A stretch of 64,000 nt of DNA from assembly GCA_035403785.1 (NCBI GenBank), contig DAONFW010000001.1:21595-85594 (forward strand), in the 5' to 3' direction. The notes under the pieces are model-generated. The model saw only the letters and a list, made by a program, of their open reading frames with translations, was not told where the DNA came from and searched no databases. Made by a program: the position numbers and the translations under genes. This DNA is from Minisyncoccota bacterium. GTDB taxonomy: Bacteria; Patescibacteriota; Minisyncoccia; Phycocordibacterales; UBA9973. Shown here in pieces: positions 400-56,305 of this stretch. Each line of letters begins with the position of its first letter. Within the stretch, counting starts at the first letter, position 1.

Positions 400-1737
400 T
401 CATTTAATCTTTAAGAACAAATCGGTAATACCTTTGAGTAAATTTTCATCCGGCACTAAATCTTTAAGCTCTTTTGCAAATGACAAGAAACTTTCCGTTT
501 CTTTTTCATTACTAGCATTCAATAATTCTATTTTTTCTTTCTCTTTCTTTACCTTTTTCCAATCAATAGATTTCTCGTAAGGTTCAGTATAAAGTTTCTC
601 AATGGTTTTCCTTATGAAGGTCGTAGTCTCACCGTCTGACCCCTTTTCTTTAATTTTTTGAATTAGGAAATCTGCGTGGTTGCGCATGACTTCGGCTACA
701 GTTGCCTTGAATGAATATTTTTCCTCTAAATCCCGCTCAGTACCATATCGTCTAATTGCAAAAGTAATCAAAAAGAGTAGTGGCGAAGTAAGCGTTAAGC
801 GATAGAACAGAGATTCCCATTTAGGAATTTCACCTCCATTATGCAAAAGAATTTCCTTTACATCAAAAATAAAATAGAGAAGGATAGAAAGAGCAACAAT
901 ACCCAACGAGAAAATCGCTAACCAAATATAGCTATTCCTGCGTAGTAATTTAGCCCTATTTTGAAACGAATTAGCAAAACCCGTGTCTGTAATGAGGTCT
1001 GCTATTTTTTCAACCTCGGATCGTTTTTCTGTCGCGATATCAAGATTCTTTTGTATGTCATCTCGCAGTTGTTCTGATTTTTTCTTATTCCCTTCGATCT
1101 CAGAAAGGTGTTTCTGTGATTGATCACGAAAAGACTGAATTTCTGTAGCAACAGCAGTTGCTTTTTTCTGCAAATCTTGAACTTGCGCAAGAACTGCTCC
1201 CAAGCCGGTATTCTGGTCAGTAATTTTTGCATTAACCGCGACAAATTCATTGTAGGCATTTTGAATTTGTGTGATTTTTTCTTGAACTTGCCCCAGTAAT
1301 TCATTAATTTTCCCTAACTGTTGCGTCGCGGTTGTTTTGGCTGTTTCAATATCTGTTCGCAGGTTATTAGCTGTCAGAACAAGTGACTCTATTTCTCCCT
1401 CTCTACCCTCGATTTTTCCTTTTATGTTTTCAAATTTACGCAAACCTTCATCAATCTGAGTAATACTGGATTGTGCTTTTTCAAGATTGCTTTTTATTTC
1501 TGCAACAAAAGTTGCGGAATCATTCTTTGCGTTCTCAATAGTCCCAAGTCGCTCCCGGGCATCGTTTGAGATTTTTTCGATCTCATTCTGTTTTGGTACA
1601 AGGGTTGCTTGTGTAGCTTCAAATTTAATTTGAAGTGCTGAAATTTTCTCCAAAATATCTTTGGCTTTGTTGTATTGGCTCTTGATGTTCCTTAATTCTT
1701 CAGGACTCAAGTTAAAATTGTCGTTTTCGTCTGGCAT
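400..1737 (-). CDS. Hypothetical coiled-coil protein with two central TM helices (possible 2TM effector or abortive-infection-like protein); island 1 cargo
   Basis: 445-aa ORF. The N-terminal ~270 aa are E/K/Q-rich heptad-like sequence. Two hydrophobic helices follow (IWLAIFSLGIVALSILLYFIF; LTLTSPLLFLITFAI), then a ~120-aa charged tail. No recognisable enzyme motif. The gene is divergent from the LexA-like gene. Confidence 0.6.
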   Translation of the reverse strand: MPDENDNFNLSPEELRNIKSQYNKAKDILEKISALQIKFEATQATLVPKQNEIEKISNDARERLGTIENAKNDSATFVAEIKSNLEKAQSSITQIDEGLRKFENIKGKIEGREGEIESLVLTANNLRTDIETAKTTATQQLGKINELLGQVQEKITQIQNAYNEFVAVNAKITDQNTGLGAVLAQVQDLQKKATAVATEIQSFRDQSQKHLSEIEGNKKKSEQLRDDIQKNLDIATEKRSEVEKIADLITDTGFANSFQNRAKLLRRNSYIWLAIFSLGIVALSILLYFIFDVKEILLHNGGEIPKWESLFYRLTLTSPLLFLITFAIRRYGTERDLEEKYSFKATVAEVMRNHADFLIQKIKEKGSDGETTTFIRKTIEKLYTEPYEKSIDWKKVKKEKEKIELLNASNEKETESFLSFAKELKDLVPDENLLKGITDLFLKIK

Positions 1738-4995: not shown

Positions 4996-5109
4996 AAATT
5001 GGAAATCGGAATCGGAAGCCGAAATGGGGTCGGCGCGAAGCGCCGACACAAACGCATTCCCGCCAAAAATTCCCGAATCCAAAAGGTTTTTCCACGCTCC
5101 GCGTGGCTC
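4990..5109. repeat. Inverted repeat Y1, copy A (120 bp, GC-rich, with internal hairpins)
   Basis: Appears to be a perfect reverse-complement match to 6512..6631 when read by eye in chunks. It contains the hairpins gtcggcgc-gaa-gcgccgac and ccacgc-tcc-gcgtgg. Confidence 0.85.
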
Positions 5110-5131
5110 TCTCGTTTGCCAATACAATTTT

Positions 5132-6730
5132 ATGAATAATCAAACCAAAAAGTTTTTCATATATACTCGCAAGTCTACGGATGACAAAGACAGACAAGTC
5201 CGCAGTATTGCAGACCAACTTTCTGAATTGAAAGAATTAGCAAGGAAAGAAGATTTAGATGTTGTTGATGTCTTTGTCGAAAAGCAGACCGCCAAAATAC
5301 CAGGTCGCCCAGTGTTTGGTGAGATGTTGGAGCGAATGGAGAAAGGCGAAGCCACTGGTATTTTGGCGTGGCATCCCGATAGACTTGCTCGCAACTCGAT
5401 AGACGGAGGAAAAGTCATCTACCTCGTTGACACCGGTGTCATTTCAGAAATGAAATTCCCAACTTTTTGGTTTGATCCGACACCGCAAGGCAAGTTTATG
5501 CTTTCAATCGCTTTTTCGCAGTCCAAGTATTATGTGGACAATTTGAGCGAAAATATTAAGCGTGGACATAGAAACAAAGTGAAAGAAGGAATATGGCCTC
5601 AAATGTCGCCGCTAGGATATATAAACGAGGGCGGGAAAATTGTCGTTGATGAAAATATCGCACCTTTAATCAAGAAAACATTTGAGGCATATTCGTCTGG
5701 GTCTTTCACTTTGCGACAACTTCGCGACAAATTTAATGAACTTGGATTGAAGCGAAAAAGCGGAAAGGAACTTGCGGTGTCGAATTATCAAAAACTTTTG
5801 AAAAACCCAATTTACACAGGTTTGATGTTGTATAACGGCGAGATACACGAAGGTAAGCACGAACCGATTATTACAAAGAAACTTTTTGATTCCGTTCAAG
5901 AAGTGATGATGAGAAAATCTAAACCGAAGTCGCGAGGATTGAAACCATTTTTGTACAGAGGATTTTTCCGTTGCGGAGAATGTAGTTGCTTCATTACCAC
6001 CGAAACACAGAAGGGTCATAATTATTTGCGATGTACCAAACGGAAAAATCCTTGTTCACAAAAATATACTCGTGAGGAAACCATCACTTCTGAAATTCAA
6101 AAGGAAATCAAAAAAGTTTCTTTGCCAGACGATTGGGCTTCTTGGATGTTAGTGGAAAATAGAAAAGATATATTGAGTGAAGCCCAATTGTCTACGCTTT
6201 TTGCAGACAACACAAAAGCCGATATTTCTCTTTTGGATTCTAAAATTGAGAAGCTGATGAACGCATATTTAGAGAACGCACTTTCGCTAGACGAGTATCG
6301 AGATATGAAAAACAAACTTGTGAACGAAAAACAGCTTCTCAAAGAGAAATTATCGGCTTTTGAGAAAAAAGCGAATAATCGGTTCGAACTTACCGAAAAG
6401 TTTTTGAAATACAATGTGGAATTGGCAAACGAGTGTACAAATGAAGAAAAACTTCATTTGTACAAAAAAGTCGGTTCGAACTTTCAAATTAAGGATCGAA
6501 CCGTACTTTTTGAGCCACGCGGAGCGTGGAAAAACCTTTTGGATTCGGGAATTTTTGGCGGGAATGCGTTTGTGTCGGCGCTTCGCGCCGACCCCATTTC
6601 GGCTTCCGATTCCGATTTCCAATTTTGGCGGAGGCGGAGGGATTCGAACCCTCGATGCCCTTTCAGACATACAGACTTTCCAGGTCTGCGCACTAGACCG
6701 CTATGCGACGCCTCCAAAATTTCTTATTAA
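5132..6730 (+). CDS. Large serine recombinase (resolvase/invertase catalytic domain, recombinase domain and zinc ribbon)
   Basis: The ATG at 5132 aligns with the paralog start MDNINLQTKKIFLYARKSTDE. Catalytic Ser is in YTRKSTDD. The Cys cluster FRCGECSCFITT...LRCTKRKNPC is present. Homology to the paralog ends near aa 465 (GSNFQIKDRTVLFEP). The last ~70 codons are encoded by repeat Y1 copy B and antisense tRNA-Ser, so the functional end is probably earlier than the ORF stop. Confidence 0.85.
   Translation: MNNQTKKFFIYTRKSTDDKDRQVRSIADQLSELKELARKEDLDVVDVFVEKQTAKIPGRPVFGEMLERMEKGEATGILAWHPDRLARNSIDGGKVIYLVDTGVISEMKFPTFWFDPTPQGKFMLSIAFSQSKYYVDNLSENIKRGHRNKVKEGIWPQMSPLGYINEGGKIVVDENIAPLIKKTFEAYSSGSFTLRQLRDKFNELGLKRKSGKELAVSNYQKLLKNPIYTGLMLYNGEIHEGKHEPIITKKLFDSVQEVMMRKSKPKSRGLKPFLYRGFFRCGECSCFITTETQKGHNYLRCTKRKNPCSQKYTREETITSEIQKEIKKVSLPDDWASWMLVENRKDILSEAQLSTLFADNTKADISLLDSKIEKLMNAYLENALSLDEYRDMKNKLVNEKQLLKEKLSAFEKKANNRFELTEKFLKYNVELANECTNEEKLHLYKKVGSNFQIKDRTVLFEPRGAWKNLLDSGIFGGNAFVSALRADPISASDSDFQFWRRRRDSNPRCPFRHTDFPGLRTRPLCDASKISY
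6512..6631. repeat. Inverted repeat Y1, copy B, overlapping the recombinase 3' end and abutting the tRNA-Ser 3' end
   Basis: Reverse complement of 4990..5109. Its last 6 nt (tggcgg) are the terminal CCGCCA of the tRNA. Confidence 0.85.
6626..6715 (-). tRNA. tRNA-Ser (anticodon GGA), class II with a long variable arm
   Basis: Reverse complement reads GGAGGCG-TC-GCAT...; anticodon stem-loop CAGAC-CTGGAAA-GTCTG; T arm GAGGGTTCGAATCCCTC; acceptor CGCCTCC-G-CCA. Length 90 nt. Confidence 0.85.
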
Positions 6731-19839: not shown

Positions 19840-20967
19840 TTATTGTAATTTTCGTAAAGCCAAACCTATGGCAACTGCGAATTCTGGGCCAGTTGCCTCA
19901 AGAACTTTGTCCAAAAATGCTGGGGCGCCAACTTTTGAAAACGGTTTCCCCACTACTACTTCTGCTTTAAAACTATTTGTAGCTATTTCTTTCAACCCTT
20001 TCATCAAAGCCCCACCGCCAGTCAAAATAACTTTACTAATAGTCCTTCCGTATTTTTTTTCATAGCCAAGCAAGACATCATTCGTTTCAGCAATAATATA
20101 ATCTGTATGCAATTTTATTATTTCCGGCAAAGTTTTTTCTATTGGATTATCGTAAAGGCCATATTCTTTTTTTAATTCTTCTGCTTTCGCAAACGGAATG
20201 CTCAAAGATTTTGAAATCGAATCTGTTATATCAGAGCCTCCCCTATTCACAGTATGAAAACTTTTTATTGTGCCAAATTCAACAATTGAAAGTTTGGTAC
20301 GCGATGCGCCAAAGTCCATTAGCAATACTGGTGAAAGTTCGTGTTCAAAATTTGATCGAATAGAAGAAAAAACTTCTACCTCAAAAAAATCTGTCTCTAA
20401 TTCTGCGCCTGAAACAATCGAGCGATATTTTGAGACTGCATCGTTCTGAATAGCTACAACTAGAACTTCTATTTTTTCAGCCACAACGATTGCGTCTGGA
20501 TTGTGTGATTCTGCAAATGATGGCTCTTTTTTTGGTAAGACAAAATAATCCAAAGAAACTTCGGTAATCGGCACTGGAATATACTTTCTTGCTTCTGTTT
20601 TTACAATCGCATCTATCTCGCTTTCTTTTATCTGAGCTGGGAGTTCGATAGTAAAAATCAAACTTGAAACAACCGGAATGGCTAATGCTGAATTTTTAGT
20701 AGTAACATTTGAATCTTTTAGAACTTCTTTCAGAGCTTCAATTATTTTTTCCGGCTGAAGACTTGTAACTCTTCCCATTTCTAATTCTGCGTACGGGCCT
20801 AAAGAGATCGCACCATAAGTTTCAAGCACAGCGCGCCCTTCTTTTTTCTTAATCTGCACAATTTTAATCATTGAAGAACCGATGTCGATTCCGACAGCGC
20901 TTTCACTAGAACCTCCTTTGAATATACCAGAAGCTGTATCTAAAATTTTCTTGAACGGATTATCCAT
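19840..20967 (-). CDS. pilM: PilM (actin-like ATPase fold)
   Basis: GIDIGSSMIKIV phosphate-1-like motif. Length 375 aa. First gene of the pilMNO set. Confidence 0.75.
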   Translation of the reverse strand: MDNPFKKILDTASGIFKGGSSESAVGIDIGSSMIKIVQIKKKEGRAVLETYGAISLGPYAELEMGRVTSLQPEKIIEALKEVLKDSNVTTKNSALAIPVVSSLIFTIELPAQIKESEIDAIVKTEARKYIPVPITEVSLDYFVLPKKEPSFAESHNPDAIVVAEKIEVLVVAIQNDAVSKYRSIVSGAELETDFFEVEVFSSIRSNFEHELSPVLLMDFGASRTKLSIVEFGTIKSFHTVNRGGSDITDSISKSLSIPFAKAEELKKEYGLYDNPIEKTLPEIIKLHTDYIIAETNDVLLGYEKKYGRTISKVILTGGGALMKGLKEIATNSFKAEVVVGKPFSKVGAPAFLDKVLEATGPEFAVAIGLALRKLQ

Positions 20968-22302: not shown

Positions 22303-22331
22303 AAAAAGACCCAGATTACTCTGGGTTTTTT
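22303..22331. terminator. Bidirectional rho-independent terminator (acccag-attact-ctgggt flanked by A- and T-runs)
   Basis: Seen in sequence. It is near-identical to the hairpin at 50150..50178. Confidence 0.6.
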
Positions 22332-22352
22332 GTAATAATTACTATTTAATTA

Positions 22353-24539
22353 TTATTTCAAACTATTTATCACTGTATTTGTCTTAGGACCAATAATACC
22401 ATCACCTACTAACTTGTTAGCTAATTGGAACTTAATGACTGCTTTTTTAGTTAAAGTACCAAAGTAGTTTGTCTCATGTCCTGGTGAACCTGCTCCTGTA
22501 GTAGCTACTTGATAACCATGAGTGTTTAAGAACTTTTGGAGTTCTTTTACGTCATTGTTTATCATAGAGTATTTTAGGAGTTTGGTGAAGGTGAAGGAAG
22601 TTGCTGAAGTATTACTAAATTGTGATTGTAATTGTGCAGCTTCTGTTGTTTTACCCATTGATACTAAGTTGGCCACTTGAGCTCCTAGAGATGAGCCGGA
22701 AGAAGTGTGAGACCTTGGAGTTAAAATTGTAGTAAAATTCCAAAATGTTTTATTTGAAATCGCCCCAATAGGATTACCAGACAAATCAGTAACAGCACCC
22801 TCTTCGGTTAAAACATAATATCCTGTATTTTCATCTAATACATTAGATGGATTAACAGTGACAACATTACCTACTATGGTTACACTAGGATCACCACCCG
22901 TTACTGTTTCAACTAATGAATCATCAGATGTTTTATAAATTCTAAAAGTTTTACCATTTCCAATTAAAATATCTTCATTAAAAGTTATAGCTAAATTTGT
23001 ATCTACTGCTACATCAATAGCATTATCTAATGGATTAAATAAAGAAACAGTAGGAGGAATAACATCTTCTAAAACAAGTTTAGAAATAAAACTATCCCAA
23101 TCACCAAAAGAAGTTAAAGTAGTTGTTCCTACTCCTGGATCAAAACCACCTGTACCAGAAAAAGATCCTGCAACCCAAACATTATCTCCCGAAGAATCAA
23201 CAGCAACACTTGCATCATAACTCGAACCTGAACCCATTTGTTTTGCCCAAACAAAATTACCATCTGAATCAAGTTTTAAAACGAATTTACTATTACCAGC
23301 TGAAGCCAAATTATAGGTTCCTGCTCCAGGATCAAAATCAACTGTACTATTAAAAAATCCAGCGGTATAAGTATTACCACTTGAATCAATTGCAATACCA
23401 AAAGATTCATCTTCGGCTCCTGTACCTCCTATTTGTTTTACCCATACAAAATTTCCATCTGAATCAAGTTTTAAAATAAAAATATCCTCCGTTCCAGAAG
23501 TAGCTATTAATTTATTTTCTGCTACTCCAGGATCAAAATCAACCGTTCCAGTAAAATATCCGGTAAGATACAAATTATTCCCAGTAAAATCAAGAACTGA
23601 ATCAAACGGGGTGCTTGCACCCACACCAGAACCTACTATTTGTTTTGCCCATACAAAATTACTAGAAGAATCTAACTTCACAACAAAACTATCTGTTCCT
23701 ACAGCTGTAAGAGGAAAGATTCCTGCCCCAGGGTCAAAATCATCAGTTCCATCAAAATAACCAGAAAAATAAACATTGCCATTAGAATCAACTGCAGCAG
23801 AAGGACTAGTCCCCCATCTATATGTTCCCATTTGTTTTGCCCATACAAAATTACCATCTGAATCCAGTTTTAAAACATACGAAGCACTATTGTTCGGTGA
23901 GACAATATCAACAACAGAAGCTCCTGGATCAAAATCAACAGTTCCAGAAAAAGAACCCGAAATATAAATATTATTTAATGAATCAAGAGTTAAATTTTTA
24001 CTATCCGCAGAATCAGTACCAGTATTATGCCCTCCTACTTGTTTTGCCCAAACAAAATTTCCACTTGAATTTAATTTAACAATAAAAACATCTGTTCCAC
24101 CAACAGCCGTAAGGGGAAAAGTTCCTGCCCCAGGATCAAAATCAACAGTTCCAGAAAAATAACCAGTTATATAAACATTTTTAGAAGCATCCACTTTCAA
24201 AGAACGACCAAAAGCCTGATTTCCAGCTGTTCCACCCATTTGTTTTGCCCATACAAAATTACCATCTGAATCCATTTTTAAAACAAAAGCATCATAAAGA
24301 GCAGATGTTAAAGAAACATTTCCTATCCCCGGATCTAAATCAGCTGTCCCAGAAAAAAAACCAGTGGTATAAACATTACCGCTTGAATCAATCGCATTAG
24401 AATAAGAAATATCTCTTCCAGCTCCTCCAATTTGCCCGACCCAATTCAAAAGGACATTATCAGCTTTTGCTAACTGAGGAAACATCACACCAAATACTAA
24501 GAATAAAACAAAAACACTTAAAACTAAATATTTTTTCAT
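22353..24539 (-). CDS. Secreted SBBP (beta-propeller) repeat protein with Ig-like region and C-terminal peptidoglycan-binding domain
   Basis: Signal peptide. At least 8 repeats of DSxGNxYxTGxFSGTxDFDPG...FVxKLDSDGNFVWAKQ. The C-terminus LQKFLNTHGY...GxxTxxAVxxFQ matches the PG_binding_1 pattern. Confidence 0.75.
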   Translation of the reverse strand: MKKYLVLSVFVLFLVFGVMFPQLAKADNVLLNWVGQIGGAGRDISYSNAIDSSGNVYTTGFFSGTADLDPGIGNVSLTSALYDAFVLKMDSDGNFVWAKQMGGTAGNQAFGRSLKVDASKNVYITGYFSGTVDFDPGAGTFPLTAVGGTDVFIVKLNSSGNFVWAKQVGGHNTGTDSADSKNLTLDSLNNIYISGSFSGTVDFDPGASVVDIVSPNNSASYVLKLDSDGNFVWAKQMGTYRWGTSPSAAVDSNGNVYFSGYFDGTDDFDPGAGIFPLTAVGTDSFVVKLDSSSNFVWAKQIVGSGVGASTPFDSVLDFTGNNLYLTGYFTGTVDFDPGVAENKLIATSGTEDIFILKLDSDGNFVWVKQIGGTGAEDESFGIAIDSSGNTYTAGFFNSTVDFDPGAGTYNLASAGNSKFVLKLDSDGNFVWAKQMGSGSSYDASVAVDSSGDNVWVAGSFSGTGGFDPGVGTTTLTSFGDWDSFISKLVLEDVIPPTVSLFNPLDNAIDVAVDTNLAITFNEDILIGNGKTFRIYKTSDDSLVETVTGGDPSVTIVGNVVTVNPSNVLDENTGYYVLTEEGAVTDLSGNPIGAISNKTFWNFTTILTPRSHTSSGSSLGAQVANLVSMGKTTEAAQLQSQFSNTSATSFTFTKLLKYSMINNDVKELQKFLNTHGYQVATTGAGSPGHETNYFGTLTKKAVIKFQLANKLVGDGIIGPKTNTVINSLK

Positions 24540-24582
24540 TTTTATAAATTAAATTATTAATAATTAAGATAGAATTATTATA

Positions 24583-24593
24583 CCCCCCCCCCC
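24583..24593. repeat. Homopolymeric C11 (G11 on the coding strand) tract about 45 bp upstream of the SBBP gene start
   Basis: Seen in sequence: tataccccccccccccgcaag in an otherwise ~30% GC intergenic region. Confidence 0.9.
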
Positions 24594-24697
24594 GCAAGAT
24601 TTACAAAATTTTAAAAAGTGAAAAAACTAAAAACCCCACACAATTAAGTGCGAGGTTTTTAAAATATTTCTAATATTTTCTGTTTTTTATTTTTTAT

Positions 24698-25150
24698 TTA
24701 CTGAACAGGAACAGCAACGTTTCTTACTTCAACAGACTGCGCAGTGACGCTACCATCAGAATTTGGAGTCCCATTTATACTTACAGTCTTCCCTACTTCT
24801 AAATCTTGAACTGTGCCTTCTGTACTTTTTGAAACAGAAGTTTTGTCAGAAAGAAAAATTATTCTCGAACCACCATTTTTCATTTTTAGAGTAATACTCA
24901 TTGCATCTTTTGCTAATATTTCTCCAGAGAACATGCCACTGTTAAAACCCGACTCAAAATTTCCATTTCTCATTCCCCCAACTGGACCACCCAAGCCCAT
25001 CTGCTGCTGAAATTTATCATTCTTCATCCTGTTAGAATTTCTATTTTTTGAAACACAAGAACCGATTGCAAAAAAGATAATTGCGATGGCCAAAAATCCT
25101 GCTATCAAAATCAAAGCCTTTTTGTTTTTTAATAAATTTTTTATATTCAT
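24698..25150 (-). CDS. Small membrane-anchored secreted protein; paralog of the 28988..29500 product
   Basis: N-terminal TM. The C-terminal ~80 aa are similar to the C-terminus of the 28988..29500 ORF (the ...DKTSVSK.../...ENTQIQK...VEVR/VRL pattern). Confidence 0.45.
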   Translation of the reverse strand: MNIKNLLKNKKALILIAGFLAIAIIFFAIGSCVSKNRNSNRMKNDKFQQQMGLGGPVGGMRNGNFESGFNSGMFSGEILAKDAMSITLKMKNGGSRIIFLSDKTSVSKSTEGTVQDLEVGKTVSINGTPNSDGSVTAQSVEVRNVAVPVQ

Positions 25151-27224: not shown

Positions 27225-28949
27225 TTACATTCCCAACGGTGGTCCTCCTGCTCTCATGTTATTACTAGAACTTTTACTGCTACTAGAACTGCTTTTATTA
27301 TTATTGTTATTTTTAAATGAATTTAAAATACTCGGCGCAGAAGAAGATGAGCTGCTAGAACTCGAACCGTTAATAGTTTTTGTTACAACAATATCTCCTT
27401 CTTGAAGTCCGGAAACAATTTCAGTTGATGTGTCATCGGAAAGACCAATCTCAACTACTTTTTGTTCTGGTAAAACACTAGAAATAGAACCTTGCTCTCC
27501 AGATTTTGGCTCTGTTAAAGCTTCAGAAAAAATTTCTACATAAGAAATATTATTTTTTGTTTTTACTGCACTGGTTGGCACAACCAAAACATCTTGAGCC
27601 GTGTCGATAATAACAGAAGCCGTAACACTCATGCCTGGTTTTATTCTTTCATCTTGAGTATCAAAATTAATTTTGACATCATAATTTACCACTCCAGAAG
27701 AAACCGTACCGACAGAATCAACTTCTACAACTTCACCAGAAATAGTCAGATCTGAAATCGCGTCAAAAGTGAGTGTTGCTTTTTGCCCAGTTTTTATTTG
27801 AGCAATATCAACTTCATTAAATGGAATTTCAGCTATCTTCGCATCAGTAATGAAAGTAGCCACAGTTGTACCAGAACTTATTGAATCAGATTTTTCTACA
27901 GCAATATCTGCCACGATTCCATCAAACGGCGCTCTAATATAATAATCTGATAATTCTTCTTTCAAATCATTGAGAGAATTTTGTTTTTGTCGCACAGAAA
28001 TTTGATAACTTTCTAGATCCAAACCAGAAGTTGAAAAATCTTCCTGCGCAGTTTTGATATCTTGTTTTGAAGAATACAAATCAGACAAGTGCCCATCTAC
28101 CGTATTGATATACTGAGTCAAAGAATTCTGAATTGAAGAAAAATCTGCGCCACCGTCACGTTCATAAGATAAATAATCTACTAAATTCTTCACGCTCTTC
28201 AACATGTCTGAAGTTTTTTTAACAGTTTCATAAGTTTCGTTTACAACATTTTCAATTTCTTCATTTGTAGAATTTCTATTTACTGTTCTGTATGTTGATC
28301 TAACTTCTTGAAACATTCTATCAGTTTCGTAATATAAATTTTCAGCTTTGTCTAAATAATTCACTGCCGTTTTTCCAGAACTGATAACAACATTATTAGA
28401 TAAACTTTGCTCAGACAAAATAGCATCTTCTACTCCAGTAATCACTGTAGGTAAATCTAAAAAGGCATCAGCCACAGCTGTCAGACCGTCTTCGTAAGCT
28501 TTTTGTAAATCAGAACTTCTGTTTTCTTCAGAATTTTGAATCTCTGCTTTTTGTAAAGAAATTTTGGCGCTCTGTAAACTCAACTCTGCATCACGCAAAG
28601 ATTTTTGCATATCGCCTGAATCTATTTGCGCAATAAGAGTGTCTTTCGAAACTCTCTGTCCGCTTTTCACTCCGATAGCCACAATATCGCCAGAAGCTTT
28701 TGCTTTCAGATCAACCTGATTCGAAGCAGAAACCTGTCCTGTGCCACTTACCGAAGTTATAATCGTGCCTTTTTCAACATTAGTTGTGACATAACGTACT
28801 TCGTCAGAAGCGTTAGAAACTTTTTTGTAAGCCCAAAATCCTATCGAAAGCACCACAATCAAAATAACAATGCTTACTACTTTGTGTGCAATAAAATAAT
28901 TTTTGCACTTCAAAAAACAATTTTTCATTTTTTCTTTTATTTGAGTCAT
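27225..28949 (-). CDS. Periplasmic adaptor / membrane fusion protein (HlyD/MacA family) with Ser-rich C-terminal tail
   Basis: N-terminal TM, biotin-lipoyl-like and coiled-coil segments, beta-barrel. SSSSSSSS tail. Confidence 0.7.
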   Translation of the reverse strand: MTQIKEKMKNCFLKCKNYFIAHKVVSIVILIVVLSIGFWAYKKVSNASDEVRYVTTNVEKGTIITSVSGTGQVSASNQVDLKAKASGDIVAIGVKSGQRVSKDTLIAQIDSGDMQKSLRDAELSLQSAKISLQKAEIQNSEENRSSDLQKAYEDGLTAVADAFLDLPTVITGVEDAILSEQSLSNNVVISSGKTAVNYLDKAENLYYETDRMFQEVRSTYRTVNRNSTNEEIENVVNETYETVKKTSDMLKSVKNLVDYLSYERDGGADFSSIQNSLTQYINTVDGHLSDLYSSKQDIKTAQEDFSTSGLDLESYQISVRQKQNSLNDLKEELSDYYIRAPFDGIVADIAVEKSDSISSGTTVATFITDAKIAEIPFNEVDIAQIKTGQKATLTFDAISDLTISGEVVEVDSVGTVSSGVVNYDVKINFDTQDERIKPGMSVTASVIIDTAQDVLVVPTSAVKTKNNISYVEIFSEALTEPKSGEQGSISSVLPEQKVVEIGLSDDTSTEIVSGLQEGDIVVTKTINGSSSSSSSSSAPSILNSFKNNNNNKSSSSSSKSSSNNMRAGGPPLGM

Positions 28950-28987: not shown

Positions 28988-29500
28988 TTAATTGCTTGCT
29001 CCCATTCTTGGCGCGCTATTATTATTCGAATTATTCATCATGAATTCTTGATTCGGCATCAGTCTAACAAATTTTGCTTCTATCTGACCTTGATCATTGG
29101 GCGAACCAATCACAACCACAAAGTCATCTATTTTTAGATCTGCTATTTTTATCTGTTCTCTTCCCTTTTGAATTTGAGTATTTTCTTTTATTAAAACAAC
29201 TTTTTCGATATTTTCTCTATCTTGAACAATAATATTAGCATCAGTTATTTTGATAATTTTTCCAACTGCACCATGCGCGTTTGGCATTGCGTTCTCTCCA
29301 AAAATTGGCGGTGGAGTCATTCCAAAATTATTTTTATAATGTTCTCCCCAAGCTCTATTAAACTGCGCTTTTCTGAAACCTACAGACACTCCAGCAGAAA
29401 AAATTAGTCCGGCAATTATCAAAATTCCAAAAGCATAAATCATGCCGATTAAAATTTTTGATTTAAATATTTTTTCTAACTTTTCGTTTATTTTTTTCAT
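28988..29500 (-). CDS. Membrane-anchored hypothetical protein
   Basis: N-terminal TM. Shares a C-terminal domain with the 24698..25150 product. Confidence 0.4.
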   Translation of the reverse strand: MKKINEKLEKIFKSKILIGMIYAFGILIIAGLIFSAGVSVGFRKAQFNRAWGEHYKNNFGMTPPPIFGENAMPNAHGAVGKIIKITDANIIVQDRENIEKVVLIKENTQIQKGREQIKIADLKIDDFVVVIGSPNDQGQIEAKFVRLMPNQEFMMNNSNNNSAPRMGASN

Positions 29501-29550
29501 ATACTTATTTTTATAAATTATTTTTAAATTTTAATTTTATTAAATATTTA

Positions 29551-29955
29551 TTAATTAAATGCTAATTCCTGATTTCTAATAACTTGCTTGAGCGCATATC
29601 TGGCTGACAAGAAAAATATAAAAACAACCGCGCAAGAAAGCAGTATATTTGAAACTGGCAATGTCTCAGCAATAGAATAAACCAACTCTTTCCAAAAACC
29701 TGCCAAACCACTAACATTTGAAAATGCAAGCGACAAATATTCATAAAAACCAGACTGTGCAAACTGAGTTGCCAAATTCTTAAAAATAGGAAAAGCTCCA
29801 ACAAAAGCAACAAAACTTGTTATTGAAAATAAAGTAAGCTTAATTTTTGCAGCTTTCTTTTGACGTAAAACAATAGAACGCCAAATATCTTCAGATAAAT
29901 TTGGCTCTGCTTGATAACCGGCTTTTTTCATTATTTTTGCTAATTCATTTTCCAT
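29551..29955 (-). CDS. Membrane protein, possible anti-sigma factor partner of the ECF sigma
   Basis: It lies immediately downstream of the ECF sigma gene. It has a short cytoplasmic N-terminus and TM helices. Confidence 0.35.
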   Translation of the reverse strand: MENELAKIMKKAGYQAEPNLSEDIWRSIVLRQKKAAKIKLTLFSITSFVAFVGAFPIFKNLATQFAQSGFYEYLSLAFSNVSGLAGFWKELVYSIAETLPVSNILLSCAVVFIFFLSARYALKQVIRNQELAFN

Positions 29956-30006
29956 ATAATATATATACGGGAAAGAACTACTTTTTGGTGCAAAATTAAA
30001 AATTAA

Positions 30007-30603
30007 CTAAACTATCATTTTTCTTAATTCCAAAATAGCCCTTCTGTGATAACTTTTTACTGTATTTAAAGGCTTATCTAAAATTTTACTTATTTCATCA
30101 AAAGTCATTTCTTCTTGATAATGAAAAATCAAAACGGTCTTGTAGTGTGCTGGCAGTTTTTCTAAAAGTTCATTCAAATATTCTGCATCTTGAATTTTTT
30201 CTAGAAGTTTATCTGGTAGTAAATTTTCATCTTTGACTGTTTCAGAAAAATCTTCGAAACCTTCTTTTGTCTCAAGATCAGAAAATGAAATTATTTTCTT
30301 TTTTCTCAAAAAATCAAAACTTGTATTTTTTGCAATCGTAAAAATCCAAGTCTTGAAACTTGATTTCTTTTCATCAAATTTTCTTATGTTTTTCCAAACT
30401 TTTATAAAAACTTCTTGGAGAATATCAGAAGCATTTTCTTTGCCAACCAAATGTGCGACAAAATTAAAAAGAGGCTGGGAGTATCTGTCGATCAATTCTT
30501 TGAAAATTTCTCTATCTCCTTTTTTGTATAACAAAATTAAATTTTCATCTGAATCTAAATCTAAATCTTTCTGGTTTAAAGACATAATTAAAATATAGCA
30601 CAA
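30007..30603 (-). CDS. RNA polymerase sigma-70 factor, ECF subfamily
   Basis: Region 2 (FIKVWKNIRKFD...FKTWIFTIAKN). Region 4 HTH (MTFDEISKILDKPLNTVKSYHRRAILELR). Confidence 0.8.
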   Translation of the reverse strand: MCYILIMSLNQKDLDLDSDENLILLYKKGDREIFKELIDRYSQPLFNFVAHLVGKENASDILQEVFIKVWKNIRKFDEKKSSFKTWIFTIAKNTSFDFLRKKKIISFSDLETKEGFEDFSETVKDENLLPDKLLEKIQDAEYLNELLEKLPAHYKTVLIFHYQEEMTFDEISKILDKPLNTVKSYHRRAILELRKMIV

Positions 30604-37148: not shown

Positions 37149-38702
37149 ATGGACAACATAAATTTACAAACCAAAAAGATTTTTCTCTATGCCCGTAAAT
37201 CCACGGACGAACCCGAAAGGCAGGTTTTGAGTATTGAGGCGCAAATGTTTGAATTGCGGGAATTTGCGAAAAAAGAAGGACTAAATATCGTCCGTGAATT
37301 TGTGGAAAGCAAAACCGCCAAAGAGCCGGGGCGTGAGATTTTTAACGAAATGATCACAAGCATAGAGAAAAATGAAGCAGAGGGAATTTTAGCGTGGCAC
37401 CCCGACCGCCTCGCTCGAAATAGCATAGACGGCGGACGAATAATCTATTTCGTAGATACTGGCAAAATTACCACGCTAAAATTTCCAACTTTTTGGTTTG
37501 ATCCGACACCGCAGGGAAAATTTATGTTGAGTATCGCTTTTGGGCAATCAAAATATTATGTGGATAATCTTTCGGAAAATATAAAGAGGGGTATTCGCCA
37601 GAAATTGCGAAATGGAATATGGCCCGCTTGGGCGCCACTTGGGTATGTGAACGACAAGAACGCCCGCTGTATTGCCGTGGACAAGGAAAAGGCAAAGTAT
37701 ATCAAGCGGGCTTTTGAAATGTACGCGACTGGCGAATACCCCCTCGCTCAAATCCGAAAGATTATCAATTCCTTGGGCTTGGTTGGCAAGAAAGGCAAAA
37801 TGCTTTCCGTCTCAAATTATCAGTATATGCTGAAAAATAAAATCTATTACGGAATGATTGAATATAACGGCGAATTGTATGACGGAAAGCACGAACCGAT
37901 TATCACAAAGAGACTTTTTGATTTATGCCAAGAAGTGATGATGAATAAGTCAAAACCGAAAACACCAAAACTCAAGCCATACATTTTTAGAGGATTTTTC
38001 CGTTGTGGGGAGTGCGGTTGTTTCATTACCACCGAAACGCAAAAAGGTCATAACTATTTGCGATGTACGAAACGGAAAAATCCTTGTTCGCAAAGGTATG
38101 TAAGAGAGGACGCCATCACTTCTCAAATTAAAGAGGAAATCAAAAAAGTTTCTTTGTCTTCCGCTTGGGCAAACGCTTCAATCAATTATTTTGAAAATGA
38201 AAAAATGAAACTTGCCCAAGCGGAAAGCTCTTTCGCCCAAGAAGCGAGAAATGAGCTTGTAGAGATAGAAACAAAACTTGATCGTTTGCTTGATTTACAA
38301 CTGGACGGCAGTTTGTCGCAAGCAGAATATACCGCTAAAAAGCACAAGCTCATTCTCGCCAAAAAGGATTTGGAAGAAAAAATCACTGCTTTTGGGCGAA
38401 AGAGCAATAATCGGTTCGAACTTACCATTGCCTTTCTAAAAGACGCCAACCAAGCCGAAAAATACGCTCAACAAGAAAATCCCGAAAGGATTCGGGATTT
38501 TCTCAAAAAGATTGGTTCGAACTTCCGCATTGCCGACCGCACTTTGGTTTTGGATTTCAAAAATGCCTTCAAAATTGCGGAAAAATACCATGCCGAGGCG
38601 CTTTGCGCCGAGGCAACATCTTTCAATTTCGCTGAATGTAAAACTTGGCGGAGACGGCGGGATTCGAACCCGCGATGGGTTTTGAAGCCCATGCCTCTTT
38701 AG
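37149..38702 (+). CDS. Large serine recombinase (paralog of 5132..6730)
   Basis: YARKSTDEPERQ catalytic motif. Zinc ribbon FRCGECGCFITT...LRCTKRKNPCSQ. The C-terminal tail is encoded by repeat Y2 copy B and then antisense tRNA-Ser, giving WRRRRDSNPR as in the paralog. Confidence 0.85.
   Translation: MDNINLQTKKIFLYARKSTDEPERQVLSIEAQMFELREFAKKEGLNIVREFVESKTAKEPGREIFNEMITSIEKNEAEGILAWHPDRLARNSIDGGRIIYFVDTGKITTLKFPTFWFDPTPQGKFMLSIAFGQSKYYVDNLSENIKRGIRQKLRNGIWPAWAPLGYVNDKNARCIAVDKEKAKYIKRAFEMYATGEYPLAQIRKIINSLGLVGKKGKMLSVSNYQYMLKNKIYYGMIEYNGELYDGKHEPIITKRLFDLCQEVMMNKSKPKTPKLKPYIFRGFFRCGECGCFITTETQKGHNYLRCTKRKNPCSQRYVREDAITSQIKEEIKKVSLSSAWANASINYFENEKMKLAQAESSFAQEARNELVEIETKLDRLLDLQLDGSLSQAEYTAKKHKLILAKKDLEEKITAFGRKSNNRFELTIAFLKDANQAEKYAQQENPERIRDFLKKIGSNFRIADRTLVLDFKNAFKIAEKYHAEALCAEATSFNFAECKTWRRRRDSNPRWVLKPMPL
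38518..38650. repeat. Inverted repeat Y2, copy B, abutting the tRNA-Ser 3' end
   Basis: Reverse complement of 36901..37034. Confidence 0.85.
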
Positions 38703-38737
38703 CAAAGAGGTACGTTAGACCACTCTGACACGTCTCC
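38646..38737 (-). tRNA. tRNA-Ser (anticodon GCU), class II
   Basis: Reverse complement reads GGAGACG...; anticodon loop CCTCT-TTGCTAA-AGAGG; long variable arm; GGTTCGAATCC T-loop; CCA is encoded. Confidence 0.85.
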
Positions 38738-38809: not shown

Positions 38810-38898
38810 GGAGGCGTGGATGAGTGGTTTAAATCAACGGTTTACTAAACCGTCGTACCCTAACCGGTACCGTGAGTTCGAATCTCACCGCCTCCGCA
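38810..38898 (+). tRNA. Class II (Ser-type) tRNA with apparent anticodon ACU (unusual A34); possible tRNA-Ser variant or pseudo-tRNA
   Basis: Acceptor GGAGGCG/CGCCTCC. D-stem GAT/ATC with GG in the loop. Anticodon arm ACGGT-TTACTAA-ACCGT. Variable arm GTACC-CTAACC-GGTAC. T arm GTGAG-TTCGAAT-CTCAC. The 3' CCA is not fully encoded (GCAG). Confidence 0.6.
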
Positions 38899-46680: not shown

Positions 46681-46712
46681 GATAATTTTATGAAAGTTAT
46701 TATATCAAATTC

Positions 46713-47105
46713 TGTGGAGATGGGGGAAATCGAATCCCCGTGCAGAAGGTTACTGAAATGAAATCTACATACTTAGTTTGTTTTTTTGTTTAAACCTAAA
46801 AACTAATAAGCAAACAAAATGTTTTTAGATCGATCCTCTTTGTTTCGGAAAAGACCCGAGGCTTGTCTTCCCTATCCCGAAAATATTATGCCCCAAACTT
46901 ATATATCGGAAGTCTATAAGCGAGACACCAGCCCTCTTAAGCGAAAGCTGGAGCAAAAGCGAAGTCCTTCATACCGAAGTATGGAGAAACTGAATCTTTT
47001 ACTTTAGAAGCTAATTTTGCAATTAGTTTTTTGAATAAGTTAACGAGATTATTCAGCTCGGTATGCATCAAGACAAACAGCCAACTGTCTATGCCTTGCA
47101 TCCCC
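46713..47105 (-). ncRNA. ssrA: tmRNA (ssrA) adjacent to smpB
   Basis: The reverse complement begins GGGGATGCAAGGCAT. It ends with a T-arm-like GGGGATTCGATTTCCCC and acceptor CATCTCCA with a G3-U70 pair. An internal reading frame ...MKDFAFAPAFA-TAA resembles Mollicutes-type proteolysis tags. The region is otherwise noncoding. Confidence 0.75.
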
Positions 47106-47143: not shown

Positions 47144-47590
47144 CTATCTTTTGAACTCACGTCTAATCTCAATATCTGTCTCACGCTTTTTGATACTTTC
47201 TCTTTTGTCTCGCGTCTTCTTTCCTTTTACCAAAGCAATTTCTACTTTGATTTTTCGATTTTTATTATACATTGCAAGTGGCACTATTGTCAAACTCTTA
47301 TTCTTTTCAGAATCAGCCAATTCTTTGATTTCTTTTTTGGTTAATAACAACTTCCTGTTTCTTAAAGTGTCATAATCAGCTGGTGTATTTTTTACTTGAT
47401 ACGGCTGAATATTCGCATTCATCAGAAAACACTCACCTCCTCTGATAATACAAAAAGCCCCTTCAAGAGAAACCTTGCCGGCACGAATAGCTTTGACTTC
47501 AGTACCAATAAGCTCAATTCCAGTTTCATATTTTTCTAGAATTTCATAGTCAAACCTAGCTTTTCTGTTTTCTGCATAATAAAATGCCAT
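47144..47590 (-). CDS. smpB: SsrA-binding protein SmpB
   Basis: NRKARFDYEILE...GTEVKAIR...ANIQPY SmpB signature. Basic C-terminal tail. Confidence 0.9.
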   Translation of the reverse strand: MAFYYAENRKARFDYEILEKYETGIELIGTEVKAIRAGKVSLEGAFCIIRGGECFLMNANIQPYQVKNTPADYDTLRNRKLLLTKKEIKELADSEKNKSLTIVPLAMYNKNRKIKVEIALVKGKKTRDKRESIKKRETDIEIRREFKR

Positions 47591-53536: not shown

Positions 53537-56305
53537 TTATCTTTCGTATTTTCTCATAATTCCTGCTTCAATATCTTCCCTATCCCGTCCGTACTTCAAA
53601 TAAGAAAGTTCTTTCAATGGTTCTACAATTTCTAAATTTCCCTCCTCCGGAGCTATTGTGTGCATATTAAATGGTTTTGTCGGCTGCCCTTTAACTAACA
53701 TATTTACGTACGCATTATAGTTATCTAATTTCATAATATCAGCAGCTTTGAAAGTCGGTAAAAATCTTTTTTCTAAAAACTGTGCATCTTCAGAACTCAC
53801 ACGAAAAACAGCCATCGAACCAACGTTTCCAAAAACAGCATTTTTTATGCCTTCTTCAAGTTGCGAAATATATTGGTGCGCTATATTCAAAGACAATCTG
53901 TATTTTCTAGCTTCTGAAAGAATAGATGCAATAGAATCTGTAGTTACGTTTTGGAACTCGTCTATATACAAATAAAAATCATTCATCTTTTTTCCAAACA
54001 TATCTACACGAGAAAGCGCCGCCATTTGAATTTTTCCTACCAAAACTAGACCAATCAAGTTTGCATTCATTTCACCTAATCTACCTTTTGAGAGATTAAC
54101 TAGCAAAATTTTCTTGTTGTCCATTATTTCTCTGAAATTGAATACAGATTTTTCTTGAAGCACCACTGGTCGCATAATATCGTTTGAAATAAAGTTATCA
54201 AATTTAGAAGTAATATACGGCACAAAGTTCGCAAGACCTTGATCTCCTGTCGTTTGTTCTGCTGAAGCCCAAAATTGCTTAATAATAGGATTTTTACATT
54301 TTGAGAGTTTCATATCACGAAATGCCTTATCAGAAAGAATTCTAGATATTTCAAGTAAAGTACAACCAGAATCTGGATCTTCCATGGCAAGAAAAGCACT
54401 GTTCTTGAAATACTGTTCGAACATTGGACCTCCAGAGGTTTTCATATCGAAAAGCTTGTTAAAAATTCCCATCAGTTCATTCACTACAAAAGTCTTCTGT
54501 TCAGGATATTTTGGGTCAAATTCAAGCATATTAAGCCCCATTGGTCGTGCTGTATATGCAGGGTCAAAGTATATAACATCATCTATTCTATTTTCTGGAA
54601 TTCTAGAAAGGATAGTCTGAATATCAGTACCGTGTGGATCAATATAACAACAGCCATCACCATTTTTAATATCCTGAGTTATCATGTTTAACATAATATT
54701 AGTCTTACCTGTCCCGGTCTGACCAATTACATACATATGACGGACTCTATCTTCGCGAGCCATACGAATTTCTGTATCTTTGCCACGATAGCTATTTATA
54801 CCCAACACAATCCCCTCTTGCCCCATTTCAAACGGAGCTGGGGCAATTCCTGCTTTTGCTTCCTTAAGTTGTCCTTGACCAGTAATTCCAACAGGAAAAT
54901 GAAATACTGAAGAAAGTTCTTTTAAGTTCATCGGCAAAATTTTATTTGAAGGAAATGTTCGGTAAGAAAAATCATGAAAGAAATTTTTTAAATCTCCACC
55001 AGTCATTTTTTCAAAAACAATAGAATTACTTGCTGATTCAGTAAACTGATTAAAAGAAGATTCTATGTCACCCAAAATAGCGTCCGCCCTTTCTTTTGTT
55101 TCAGCAGAAGTGGCTATTCGAATACTTGCTTTCATAATAGAACTCTTCAATTTTTTATTAATATTTTCAACAGCGTTCTGGTCAACCGCTCGTCTACCTT
55201 TCATATATTTTTCTTTCTTTTCTTCTTCTGTTTTTTTTGTATCAAAAAATAAACCTTTTGCCGCCTGCATAAAAGCTTTATTGAACTTATAAAAATTATC
55301 AGCAGCATATTTGACAGACATACCATCTTTTACATCGTCTAAAATCAGATGAAATTGATCTATAAATTTAGTTCCAGCTGGAGCAACCAATAACTGAATC
55401 GCTGCTCCCTCCCCTTCAGATTTTAATTTTGTGAATACATTCAAAATAGTATTCATTGGGTCATGATCTATTTCTTCATAAGTTTTTATAGGTAAAACTG
55501 GACGCTCTAAAAAGCTTGCATAAGCTCCAGCTGAATATCCTTTTTCTGTAAAAATATTATAGTCATCAGAAACTTCTACAATTTTTGCATCGTGATAAAA
55601 AGCTAAAACTTGTTTTTCAAAAAGAGAAACATACTTATTTGGAACAGCGGCATAAACGACAACAGAGTCTCTGCTGTTTTCGAGAGCCACTTCTAATGTA
55701 AAATAATTTTCTTTCTCATTGTTTTTATCTTCTGCAATAGACTGCATTCCAGCATAGAACTGCTCCATTGCACCAATAAATTCTTTAAAACCTTTTTGTT
55801 TATCAGCCTCATCTTGTGGTGGAGGAAGTGTAATTTCAAAAAGCGTCATGTGCAAAGATTTATGCAACGGCGTTCCTTCTTTCAAACCCAAAATAGGCTG
55901 GCCAGTTTTCAAATACTGAATCAAAAGTCTATGAAAATCATCATCTATGTGAGGATTATTCATCGCTTCAACCACTGATATTGCATTACGAATACCTTTT
56001 GTTAAAACAATTCCCAAAAGTTCTTCCATCACTGAGTCATGCGCTTCCGGTTTCAATTTGAGTACTATTTCTCCAACTTCTTTTTCTTTCATCAACTGCG
56101 ATTTGTGCACAGCTTCTTTTGCTGGAACCTTTTTATATTCTTCTACTATATTAACTGCTGCTTTCTCGCTAGTATTTTCAAAATGTCCTAACTCTTTAAG
56201 CTCTTGCTCTCTCTTTGCCACATGCGCACGCAAATAATCAAGCTCTTCAGTCGGGCTTTTGAATTTTGGCATTTCTTTAAAAAACGAATTGGAAGATCCA
56301 AACAT
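53537..56305 (-). CDS. Large P-loop ATPase of the VirB4/TraC / T4CP / HerA-FtsK superfamily with a ~500-aa uncharacterised N-terminal domain
   Basis: Walker A YVIGQTGTGKTNIMLNM at about aa 525. Walker B YLYIDEFQN at about aa 770. Length 922 aa. No TM helices seen. Confidence 0.6.
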   Translation of the reverse strand: MFGSSNSFFKEMPKFKSPTEELDYLRAHVAKREQELKELGHFENTSEKAAVNIVEEYKKVPAKEAVHKSQLMKEKEVGEIVLKLKPEAHDSVMEELLGIVLTKGIRNAISVVEAMNNPHIDDDFHRLLIQYLKTGQPILGLKEGTPLHKSLHMTLFEITLPPPQDEADKQKGFKEFIGAMEQFYAGMQSIAEDKNNEKENYFTLEVALENSRDSVVVYAAVPNKYVSLFEKQVLAFYHDAKIVEVSDDYNIFTEKGYSAGAYASFLERPVLPIKTYEEIDHDPMNTILNVFTKLKSEGEGAAIQLLVAPAGTKFIDQFHLILDDVKDGMSVKYAADNFYKFNKAFMQAAKGLFFDTKKTEEEKKEKYMKGRRAVDQNAVENINKKLKSSIMKASIRIATSAETKERADAILGDIESSFNQFTESASNSIVFEKMTGGDLKNFFHDFSYRTFPSNKILPMNLKELSSVFHFPVGITGQGQLKEAKAGIAPAPFEMGQEGIVLGINSYRGKDTEIRMAREDRVRHMYVIGQTGTGKTNIMLNMITQDIKNGDGCCYIDPHGTDIQTILSRIPENRIDDVIYFDPAYTARPMGLNMLEFDPKYPEQKTFVVNELMGIFNKLFDMKTSGGPMFEQYFKNSAFLAMEDPDSGCTLLEISRILSDKAFRDMKLSKCKNPIIKQFWASAEQTTGDQGLANFVPYITSKFDNFISNDIMRPVVLQEKSVFNFREIMDNKKILLVNLSKGRLGEMNANLIGLVLVGKIQMAALSRVDMFGKKMNDFYLYIDEFQNVTTDSIASILSEARKYRLSLNIAHQYISQLEEGIKNAVFGNVGSMAVFRVSSEDAQFLEKRFLPTFKAADIMKLDNYNAYVNMLVKGQPTKPFNMHTIAPEEGNLEIVEPLKELSYLKYGRDREDIEAGIMRKYER

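Follow-up and report, generated by a model that had tools for sequence, protein, structure and literature searches.

We describe here a homopolymer of 11 G located inside the spacer of the putative promoter of a gene for a 728-aa secreted SBBP-repeat protein. Its host is an uncultured environmental bacterium of the Paceibacterota (CPR). Because the geometry of the site matches that of the experimentally demonstrated porA and tp0126 switches, we propose, by analogy with them, that the most likely function of the tract is transcriptional phase ('volume') variation, a reading to which we give a probability of about one half. This proposal is founded on the rarity of the tract, its reproduction across assemblies, its enclosure by the sole promoter-like site of the region, the terminator found upstream of it and the surface class of the product. 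All positions are those of the window, i.e., the whole 64-kb stretch of DNA that was analysed.

The homopolymer and its putative promoter

The tract covers positions 24583-24593, which read CCCCCCCCCCC on the plus strand (C11) and G11 on the minus strand, that of the gene. The C11 run reported by the earlier note is exact at this position, and its distance of 45 bp from the gene is essentially right: the nearest tract base lies 44 nt from the A of the ATG (24539), with 43 nt between them. The rarity of such homopolymers, also claimed there, is borne out. Indeed, in this window of 34.7% GC, C11/G11 is the sole G/C run longer than 6 nt; the runners-up are four runs of 6 nt, and A/T runs do not exceed 8 nt. 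The number of C runs of at least 11 nt expected in the window is about 0.001 (from 0.0007 under an iid model to 0.0014 under a first-order Markov model). In 80 related Patescibacteria loci (859 kb), only six G/C runs reach at least 8 nt, with a maximum length of 10, and five of the six are intergenic or at gene edges. Among these loci, L018 has a perfect TTGACA-N17-TATAAT promoter whose -35 is preceded, at a distance of 8 nt, by a C9 (921-929), and in L024 a G9 (2154-2162) lies 22 nt ahead of an ATG; G/C tracts close to promoters may be recurrent in this group. We took G/C homopolymers of at least 8-9 nt as capable of high-frequency slippage, a class to which G11 belongs. Tandem Repeats Finder detected no second notable simple-sequence repeat in the 64 kb and, G11 being the sole such tract, there is no sign of a genome-wide phase-variable gene set. 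No MutS/MutL family match was obtained among the ten window ORFs scanned. We also considered an intramolecular G-quadruplex and discarded it, since such a structure takes four G-runs of at least 3 with short loops, and here there is one unbroken G11, whose flanks are AT-rich and without further G-runs.

On the gene strand, the region reads in the following order: the DUF5666 gene, its terminator and T run, an AT-rich stretch, TTGTAA, ATCTTGC and G11, TATAAT, the leader and the ATG. The -35-like hexamer TTGTAA (24601..24606, minus strand) matches TTGACA at 4 of 6 positions, and the -10 hexamer TATAAT (24577..24582, minus strand) is perfect (6/6) and directly abuts the G tract. The 18-bp spacer (24583-24600) consists of ATCTTGC plus G11. 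Mapping of the -35 and -10 elements, proposed in the earlier note, hence places the tract in a putative promoter, where it occupies 11 of the 18 bp that separate the two hexamers; any change in its length would alter the promoter spacing. The predicted transcription start is near 24570, and the leader between TATAAT and the ATG (37 nt) is AT-rich and unstructured. In a consensus scan for sigma-70-type promoters, TTGTAA-N18-TATAAT is the only promoter-like site of at least 10/12 in the 158-bp intergenic region. When the flanks were shuffled and the tract held fixed, a site of at least this quality enclosed the tract in 1.4-2.9% of the trials; some site of at least 10/12 appeared anywhere in the region in about 18% of the shuffled versions, the DNA being AT-rich. 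A laxer promoter-consensus scan of the region revealed no enrichment.

Immediately upstream, the DUF5666 gene (24698..25150, minus strand) ends on an intrinsic terminator hairpin with a 15-pair stem (24627..24662, minus strand), next to a T run (24617-24626). This hairpin folds at -22.7 kcal/mol (z = -4.2), and none of 200 shuffles folds as well. Such a strong terminator between the two genes makes the SBBP gene its own transcription unit. The DUF5666 gene is the last of a conserved MFP-ABC-MacB-DUF5666 string, found in 65 of the 80 related loci and headed in the window (28988-30603, minus strand) by an ECF-type sigma factor gene (Sigma70_r2/r4_2; 30007..30603) and by two small ORFs (134 and 170 aa) without Pfam family. 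With an ECF-type sigma gene upstream, an ECF-sigma promoter was considered and rejected: inspection by eye gave no ECF-like motif around the tract.

The earlier note had left two routes from tract length to expression, promoter spacing and leader translation, and the second of them falls. The tract lies upstream of the -10, so it is not transcribed from the TTGTAA-N18-TATAAT promoter, and at no tract length is an upstream start fused in frame. The ORF starts at 24539 without any upstream in-frame start, and the TTG at 24597 meets stop codons at every tract length examined (by inspection). Translational phase variation, by frameshift or through the leader, was discarded on this basis.

Promoters of the sigma-70 type with spacers of 17-18 bp are evidently in use in this organism. 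A 12/12 site, TTGACA-N18-TATAAT (47264-47293, minus strand), lies about 159 nt upstream of the tmRNA gene (46712-47105), in the 3' part of an ORF (47144..47590) that we take to be possibly smpB. The gene 400..1737 is preceded by TTGACT-N18-TATAAT, and several TTxxxx-N17-TATAAT sites stand 6-7 nt before start codons. Spacers of 17 and 18 bp both seem functional in this organism. A perfect TATAAT ends 6-7 nt before the ATG of about eight genes (e.g., those starting at 1798, 16198, 40083, 50803, 52223, 52632, and 56305), and a few more genes have TATAAT 10-11 nt before the ATG. Together with the near absence of Shine-Dalgarno motifs (one of the 64 genes of the whole window), this suggests that leaderless mRNAs are widespread; the lack of such a motif before the SBBP gene is thus normal here.

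The promoter is also overlapped by a palindrome, TAATAATT-N7-AATTATTA, whose first copy (24558..24580) covers the -10, the predicted start site and the early leader. The second copy (22333..22355) overlaps the SBBP stop codon, before the terminator of the gene. There are exactly two copies in the 64 kb, and none in shuffled sequences or in the 80 related loci. The two copies may be an operator pair and, if so, classical regulation would act on top of, or instead of, tract-based control. A role as recombination sites was considered unlikely, since the central 7-nt cores differ in either orientation. The terminator hairpin that follows the SBBP gene, AAAAAGACCCAGATTnCTCTGnGTnTTTTT (22304-22332), has a near-identical counterpart after khpA in contig L089 (4025-4052; 86% identity over 42 nt) and appears to be a repeated terminator module.

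A surface protein at a variable locus

The ORF behind this promoter (22353..24539, minus strand) corresponds to HPS21228.1, annotated as 'SBBP repeat-containing protein [Candidatus Paceibacterota bacterium]', and the 728-aa SBBP/peptidoglycan-binding product announced in the earlier note is confirmed by Pfam (SBBP, Big_5, PG_binding_1). It begins with a signal peptide that is typical by inspection (residues 1-26, 24462-24539, minus strand; MKKYLVLSVFVLFLVFGVMFPQLAKA|D), followed by seven SBBP repeats of about 66 aa each, i.e., DNA units of about 200 nt (roughly 23131-24389, minus strand). The SBBP model (PF06739) matches with E = 1.7e-22 and 79.5 bits, for a cut-off of 20.5. A Big_5 Ig-like domain (residues 492-604, 22728-23066, minus strand) and a C-terminal PG_binding_1 domain (residues 662-722, 22374-22556, minus strand) complete the protein. 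From the combination of signal peptide, SBBP repeats and PG_binding_1, the product is predicted to be a secreted beta-propeller held on the cell wall. Secreted or surface proteins of such domain make-up belong to a class that is typically under phase variation.

Among 5.8 billion proteins, the closest non-self homologues are SBBP proteins of the Bacteroidota type IX secretion system (T9SS), which align with the propeller alone (about 63% of the query) at 45-52% identity. No database searched yielded an orthologue, and neither the gene nor its module is present in any of the 80 syntenic related Patescibacteria loci. The closest relatives carry unrelated genes after DUF5666, including other large secreted repeat proteins in L011. 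Hence, the SBBP gene is a species-specific addition at a variable spot. The GC content across it is not anomalous, and the C-terminal PG-binding module, used as a query for other N-terminal partners, gave five weak matches.

Variation at this locus is also seen inside the gene. At a junction at about codon 650 (22589..22590), three contigs of the same population, L088 (JGI 3300025867), L089 (JGI 3300009694), and L098 (ERZ795026), switch module. They have in common with the window the downstream flank (hyp119, ComF, PilM) and the last 79 codons or so of the gene, i.e., the PG_binding_1 module, at about 100% identity. Beyond the junction, a different N-terminal module of about 709 codons with a Big_12 domain replaces the first 650 codons or so and the whole upstream region. 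In L089 and L098, this alternative module is preceded by rpsP-khpA, without poly-G and without a DUF5666 gene, and the L089 copy has an in-frame TAA after codon 299. In ERZ795026, the SBBP contig has a coverage of 5.2, the alternative module one of 4.2 and the shared flank one of 5.6. The switch may reflect alleles of different strains or else recombination of paralogues within a single genome and, in both cases, the SBBP surface-protein locus is a diversity hot spot. Such a hot spot, with a species-specific gene in it, fits diversifying pressure and a contingency-locus reading. Contig L004 also leaves the SBBP module at this junction, for 33 nt of unrelated sequence without any counterpart in the window or in the loci retrieved; with 53% GC, this tail may be a chimeric contig end. 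Five other contigs end within 22461-22590.

Further traces of exchange occur in the window. In the pilM region (20080-20836), SNPs between co-occurring strains are clustered (eight in 20625-20836 for L089, six in 20080-20533 for L090), and the surrounding kilobases are identical between strains, a pattern that points to recombination over short tracts of pilM. Two large serine recombinases (Resolvase, Recombinase, Zn_ribbon_recom) are encoded on the plus strand at 5024-6730 and 37149-38702. The 3' end of each overlaps a tRNA-Ser on the opposite strand (6626-6715 and 38646-38737), and a third tRNA-Ser lies at 38810-38897; the recombinase/tRNA-Ser sites may be boundaries of integrated elements. 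Finally, a 922-aa protein (53537-56305, minus strand) has weak coupling-protein domains of the VirD4/TraG kind (TrwB_AAD_bind, TraG-D_C), a hint of an element related to conjugation or type IV secretion.

The proposed switch and its alternatives

A G11 run within a promoter spacer has the arrangement that is classic for expression switches driven by slippage. During replication, slipped-strand mispairing would lengthen or shorten the run by single G far more often than point mutations arise, as can be inferred from the physical properties of G/C runs. Spacers of 16, 17, 18, 19, and 20 bp would result from G9, G10, G11, G12, and G13, respectively. Transcription would be high at 17-18 bp and low or off at 16 bp or less and at 19 bp or more. 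Given that 17- and 18-bp spacers seem functional in this organism, G10 and G11 would be expressing states, and G12-13, or G9 and shorter, weak or silent ones. The outcome would be heritable and reversible subpopulations differing in the amount of SBBP surface protein. Three elements of this scheme we infer: TTGTAA-N18-TATAAT, as its sequence suggests, would be the promoter in use; tract length would vary in the population; and expression would follow tract length as in the known systems. The ON/OFF behaviour, the host interaction and the immune or phage evasion that the earlier note had attached to the SBBP protein are likewise conjectural.

The reality of the tract comes before its function. 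Illumina two-colour data often contain spurious poly-G, and two contigs do end at the tract, so we considered a sequencing or assembly artefact, i.e., two-colour-chemistry poly-G or a homopolymer miscall. However, G11 with identical flanks recurs in four further contigs from three assemblies, L001 and L002 (NCBI GCA_964410415.1), L003 (JGI 3300009692), and L004 (ENA ERZ795026), so that its length is the same in at least four assemblies or pipelines (NCBI MAG, JGI, ENA, and the source of the window itself). The tract lies inside contigs of 12-90 kb, L001-L004 being 12-31 kb long, and is continued on either side by unique sequence. It is thus neither a one-off homopolymer error, the objection that the earlier note had raised against itself and which finds no support here, nor a contig-end poly-G artefact, and we regard this explanation as extremely improbable. 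The contigs of the locus were found by exact-protein look-ups, which returned 12 contigs per flanking gene, all 100% identical to the window. Since this identity extends over 3.5-5.7 kb, all contigs sample one clonal population. No tract-length polymorphism was found among the five spanning sequences, which are all G11 and all one clone, and their constant 11 therefore says little about stability between lineages. Pattern scans of a metagenome contig collection that does not include these samples, using both flanks with a variable gap or the leader sequence, gave no match. The gene being without orthologue in the databases searched, it has no orthologous promoter in other strains with which to be compared.

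A real tract could still be functionally inert, either a stable or slowly drifting spacer or a neighbour of an unused promoter match, the gene being under conventional regulation, for instance through the palindrome. This we hold to be possible but rather unlikely. The same length of 11 is found in every spanning assembly, an invariance that is uninformative when these assemblies represent a single clone. The -35 is weak, with four matches out of six, and chance promoter-like sites of at least 10/12 are common in AT-rich DNA (the 18% given above), two points that we also count against phase variation. The rare palindrome over the -10 and the start site has its second copy at the gene's 3' end, in the manner of an operator pair, and the 64 kb contain no other simple-sequence contingency locus. 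On the other hand, 11-nt G/C runs are, as is well established, hypermutable in every bacterium tested (PMC5084427; PMC7864442), which makes a truly stable tract unlikely. Moreover, long G/C runs are strongly avoided in this genome and in its relatives, and the persistence of one exactly here suggests tolerance or selection. The remaining explanation, which we consider improbable, starts from the contig ends. The Logan contig of SRR4236661 stops at 24582, one base past G11, and a contig of JGI 3300025867 at 24585, after nine G. They are the same piece of about 4 kb from one sample, processed by two pipelines, and both also break at their other end, near 28590. These ends are ambiguous: they could stem from length heterogeneity, from poly-G read dropout at about 5x coverage or from a strain that diverges there. 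We counted them for phase variation; they could also mean that a cassette, strain-variable or acquired horizontally and comprising the -10, the leader and the SBBP module (24582 down to 22590), has its left edge at G11. The tract would then be a junction scar or a recombination hot spot, and the breaks would result not from slippage but from structural differences among co-occurring strains. The absence of the module from the 80 related loci, its nearest homologues being in Bacteroidota, and the near-identical strains with another N-terminal module joined at 22589/22590 speak in its favour. Yet the alternative allele is preceded by rpsP-khpA and not by DUF5666 and a G tract, no contig joins the tract to anything but TATAAT, read dropout explains the breaks equally well, and the GC content across the gene is unremarkable. 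An edge of this kind is, besides, compatible with a tract that also acts as a switch.

If transcriptional phase variation is true, ultra-small uncultured environmental bacteria share the bet-hedging device of pathogens for a cell-surface protein, and tract length in reads becomes an easily assayed marker for variation of the interface with hosts or phages. If it is not confirmed, the locus is an unusual promoter spacer. We also entertain a broader and more doubtful picture, in which this would be the first simple-sequence contingency locus of the CPR. Poly-G 'volume control' of a horizontally acquired, PG-anchored beta-propeller would be combined with the exchange of N-terminal modules (SBBP versus Big_12-type) on a constant PG-binding anchor at 22589/22590. 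This would provide two-tier surface variation towards hosts or phages in an ultra-small, probably episymbiotic bacterium.

Comparison with known switches

To our knowledge, promoter-homopolymer phase variation is known almost only in host-adapted pathogens (Neisseria, Haemophilus, Bordetella, Treponema, Campylobacter/Helicobacter, Mycoplasma). In the literature searched, there is no report of it in Patescibacteria/CPR. The nearest case, and the only CPR one in that search combining simple repeats and slippage for an extracellular protein, is a hypervariable repeat gene of a Gracilibacterium, for which slipped-strand mispairing was invoked to explain population variation, and whose repeats also fragmented the assembly (PMC6851277). 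In contrast to the SBBP tract, its repeats are intragenic 9-mers that change the protein sequence, not a promoter homopolymer changing expression.

Promoter homopolymers of surface-structure genes do not all act in the same way. In fim2/fim3 of Bordetella pertussis and opc of N. meningitidis, a poly-C overlaps or precedes the -35 and acts through activator positioning (PMC1891110; PMC7864442). The SBBP tract, too, is a G/C homopolymer from the promoter region of a gene for a surface structure, but it lies strictly between both hexamers. In T. pallidum, poly-G tracts of 7-12 nt are found in the promoters of putative surface-protein genes, tp0126 (an OmpW homologue) and tprE/G/J/L (PMC7864442). 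The tprL tract overlaps the -10 and leaves the spacing unchanged, whereas the SBBP tract alters it. The tp0126 tract, on the contrary, lies between the -35 and the -10 as here, with the best expression at 17 nt. T. pallidum is also, as the SBBP host, uncultivable and of small genome; length heterogeneity within isolates and reporter effects have been measured there (PMC7864442), whereas for the SBBP tract both are predictions.

The closest parallel is porA of N. meningitidis, where, according to later accounts of the original work, the poly-G is placed between the -35 and the -10 (van der Ende et al. 1995, via PMC7864442 and PMC5084427). For both porA and tp0126, slipped-strand mispairing alters the poly-G's length, and expression is best at a 17-bp spacing (PMC7864442; PMC5084427). 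As in porA, the SBBP tract falls wholly within the -35/-10 spacer of a promoter of sigma-70 type, putative in the SBBP case, that serves a surface-protein gene; changes in its length would move the spacing around the 17-bp optimum, and the control proposed by analogy for the SBBP gene would be graded ('volume') rather than exerted by frameshift. The differences lie in the setting: porA encodes a porin of a host-restricted pathogen with a genome-wide phase-variable set, whereas here the gene encodes a putative PG-anchored beta-propeller of an environmental Paceibacterota, at a single locus whose variation and effect on expression are proposed. In conclusion, the tract in the SBBP promoter is a plausible further case of a well-known type of switch, in an unexpected lineage.
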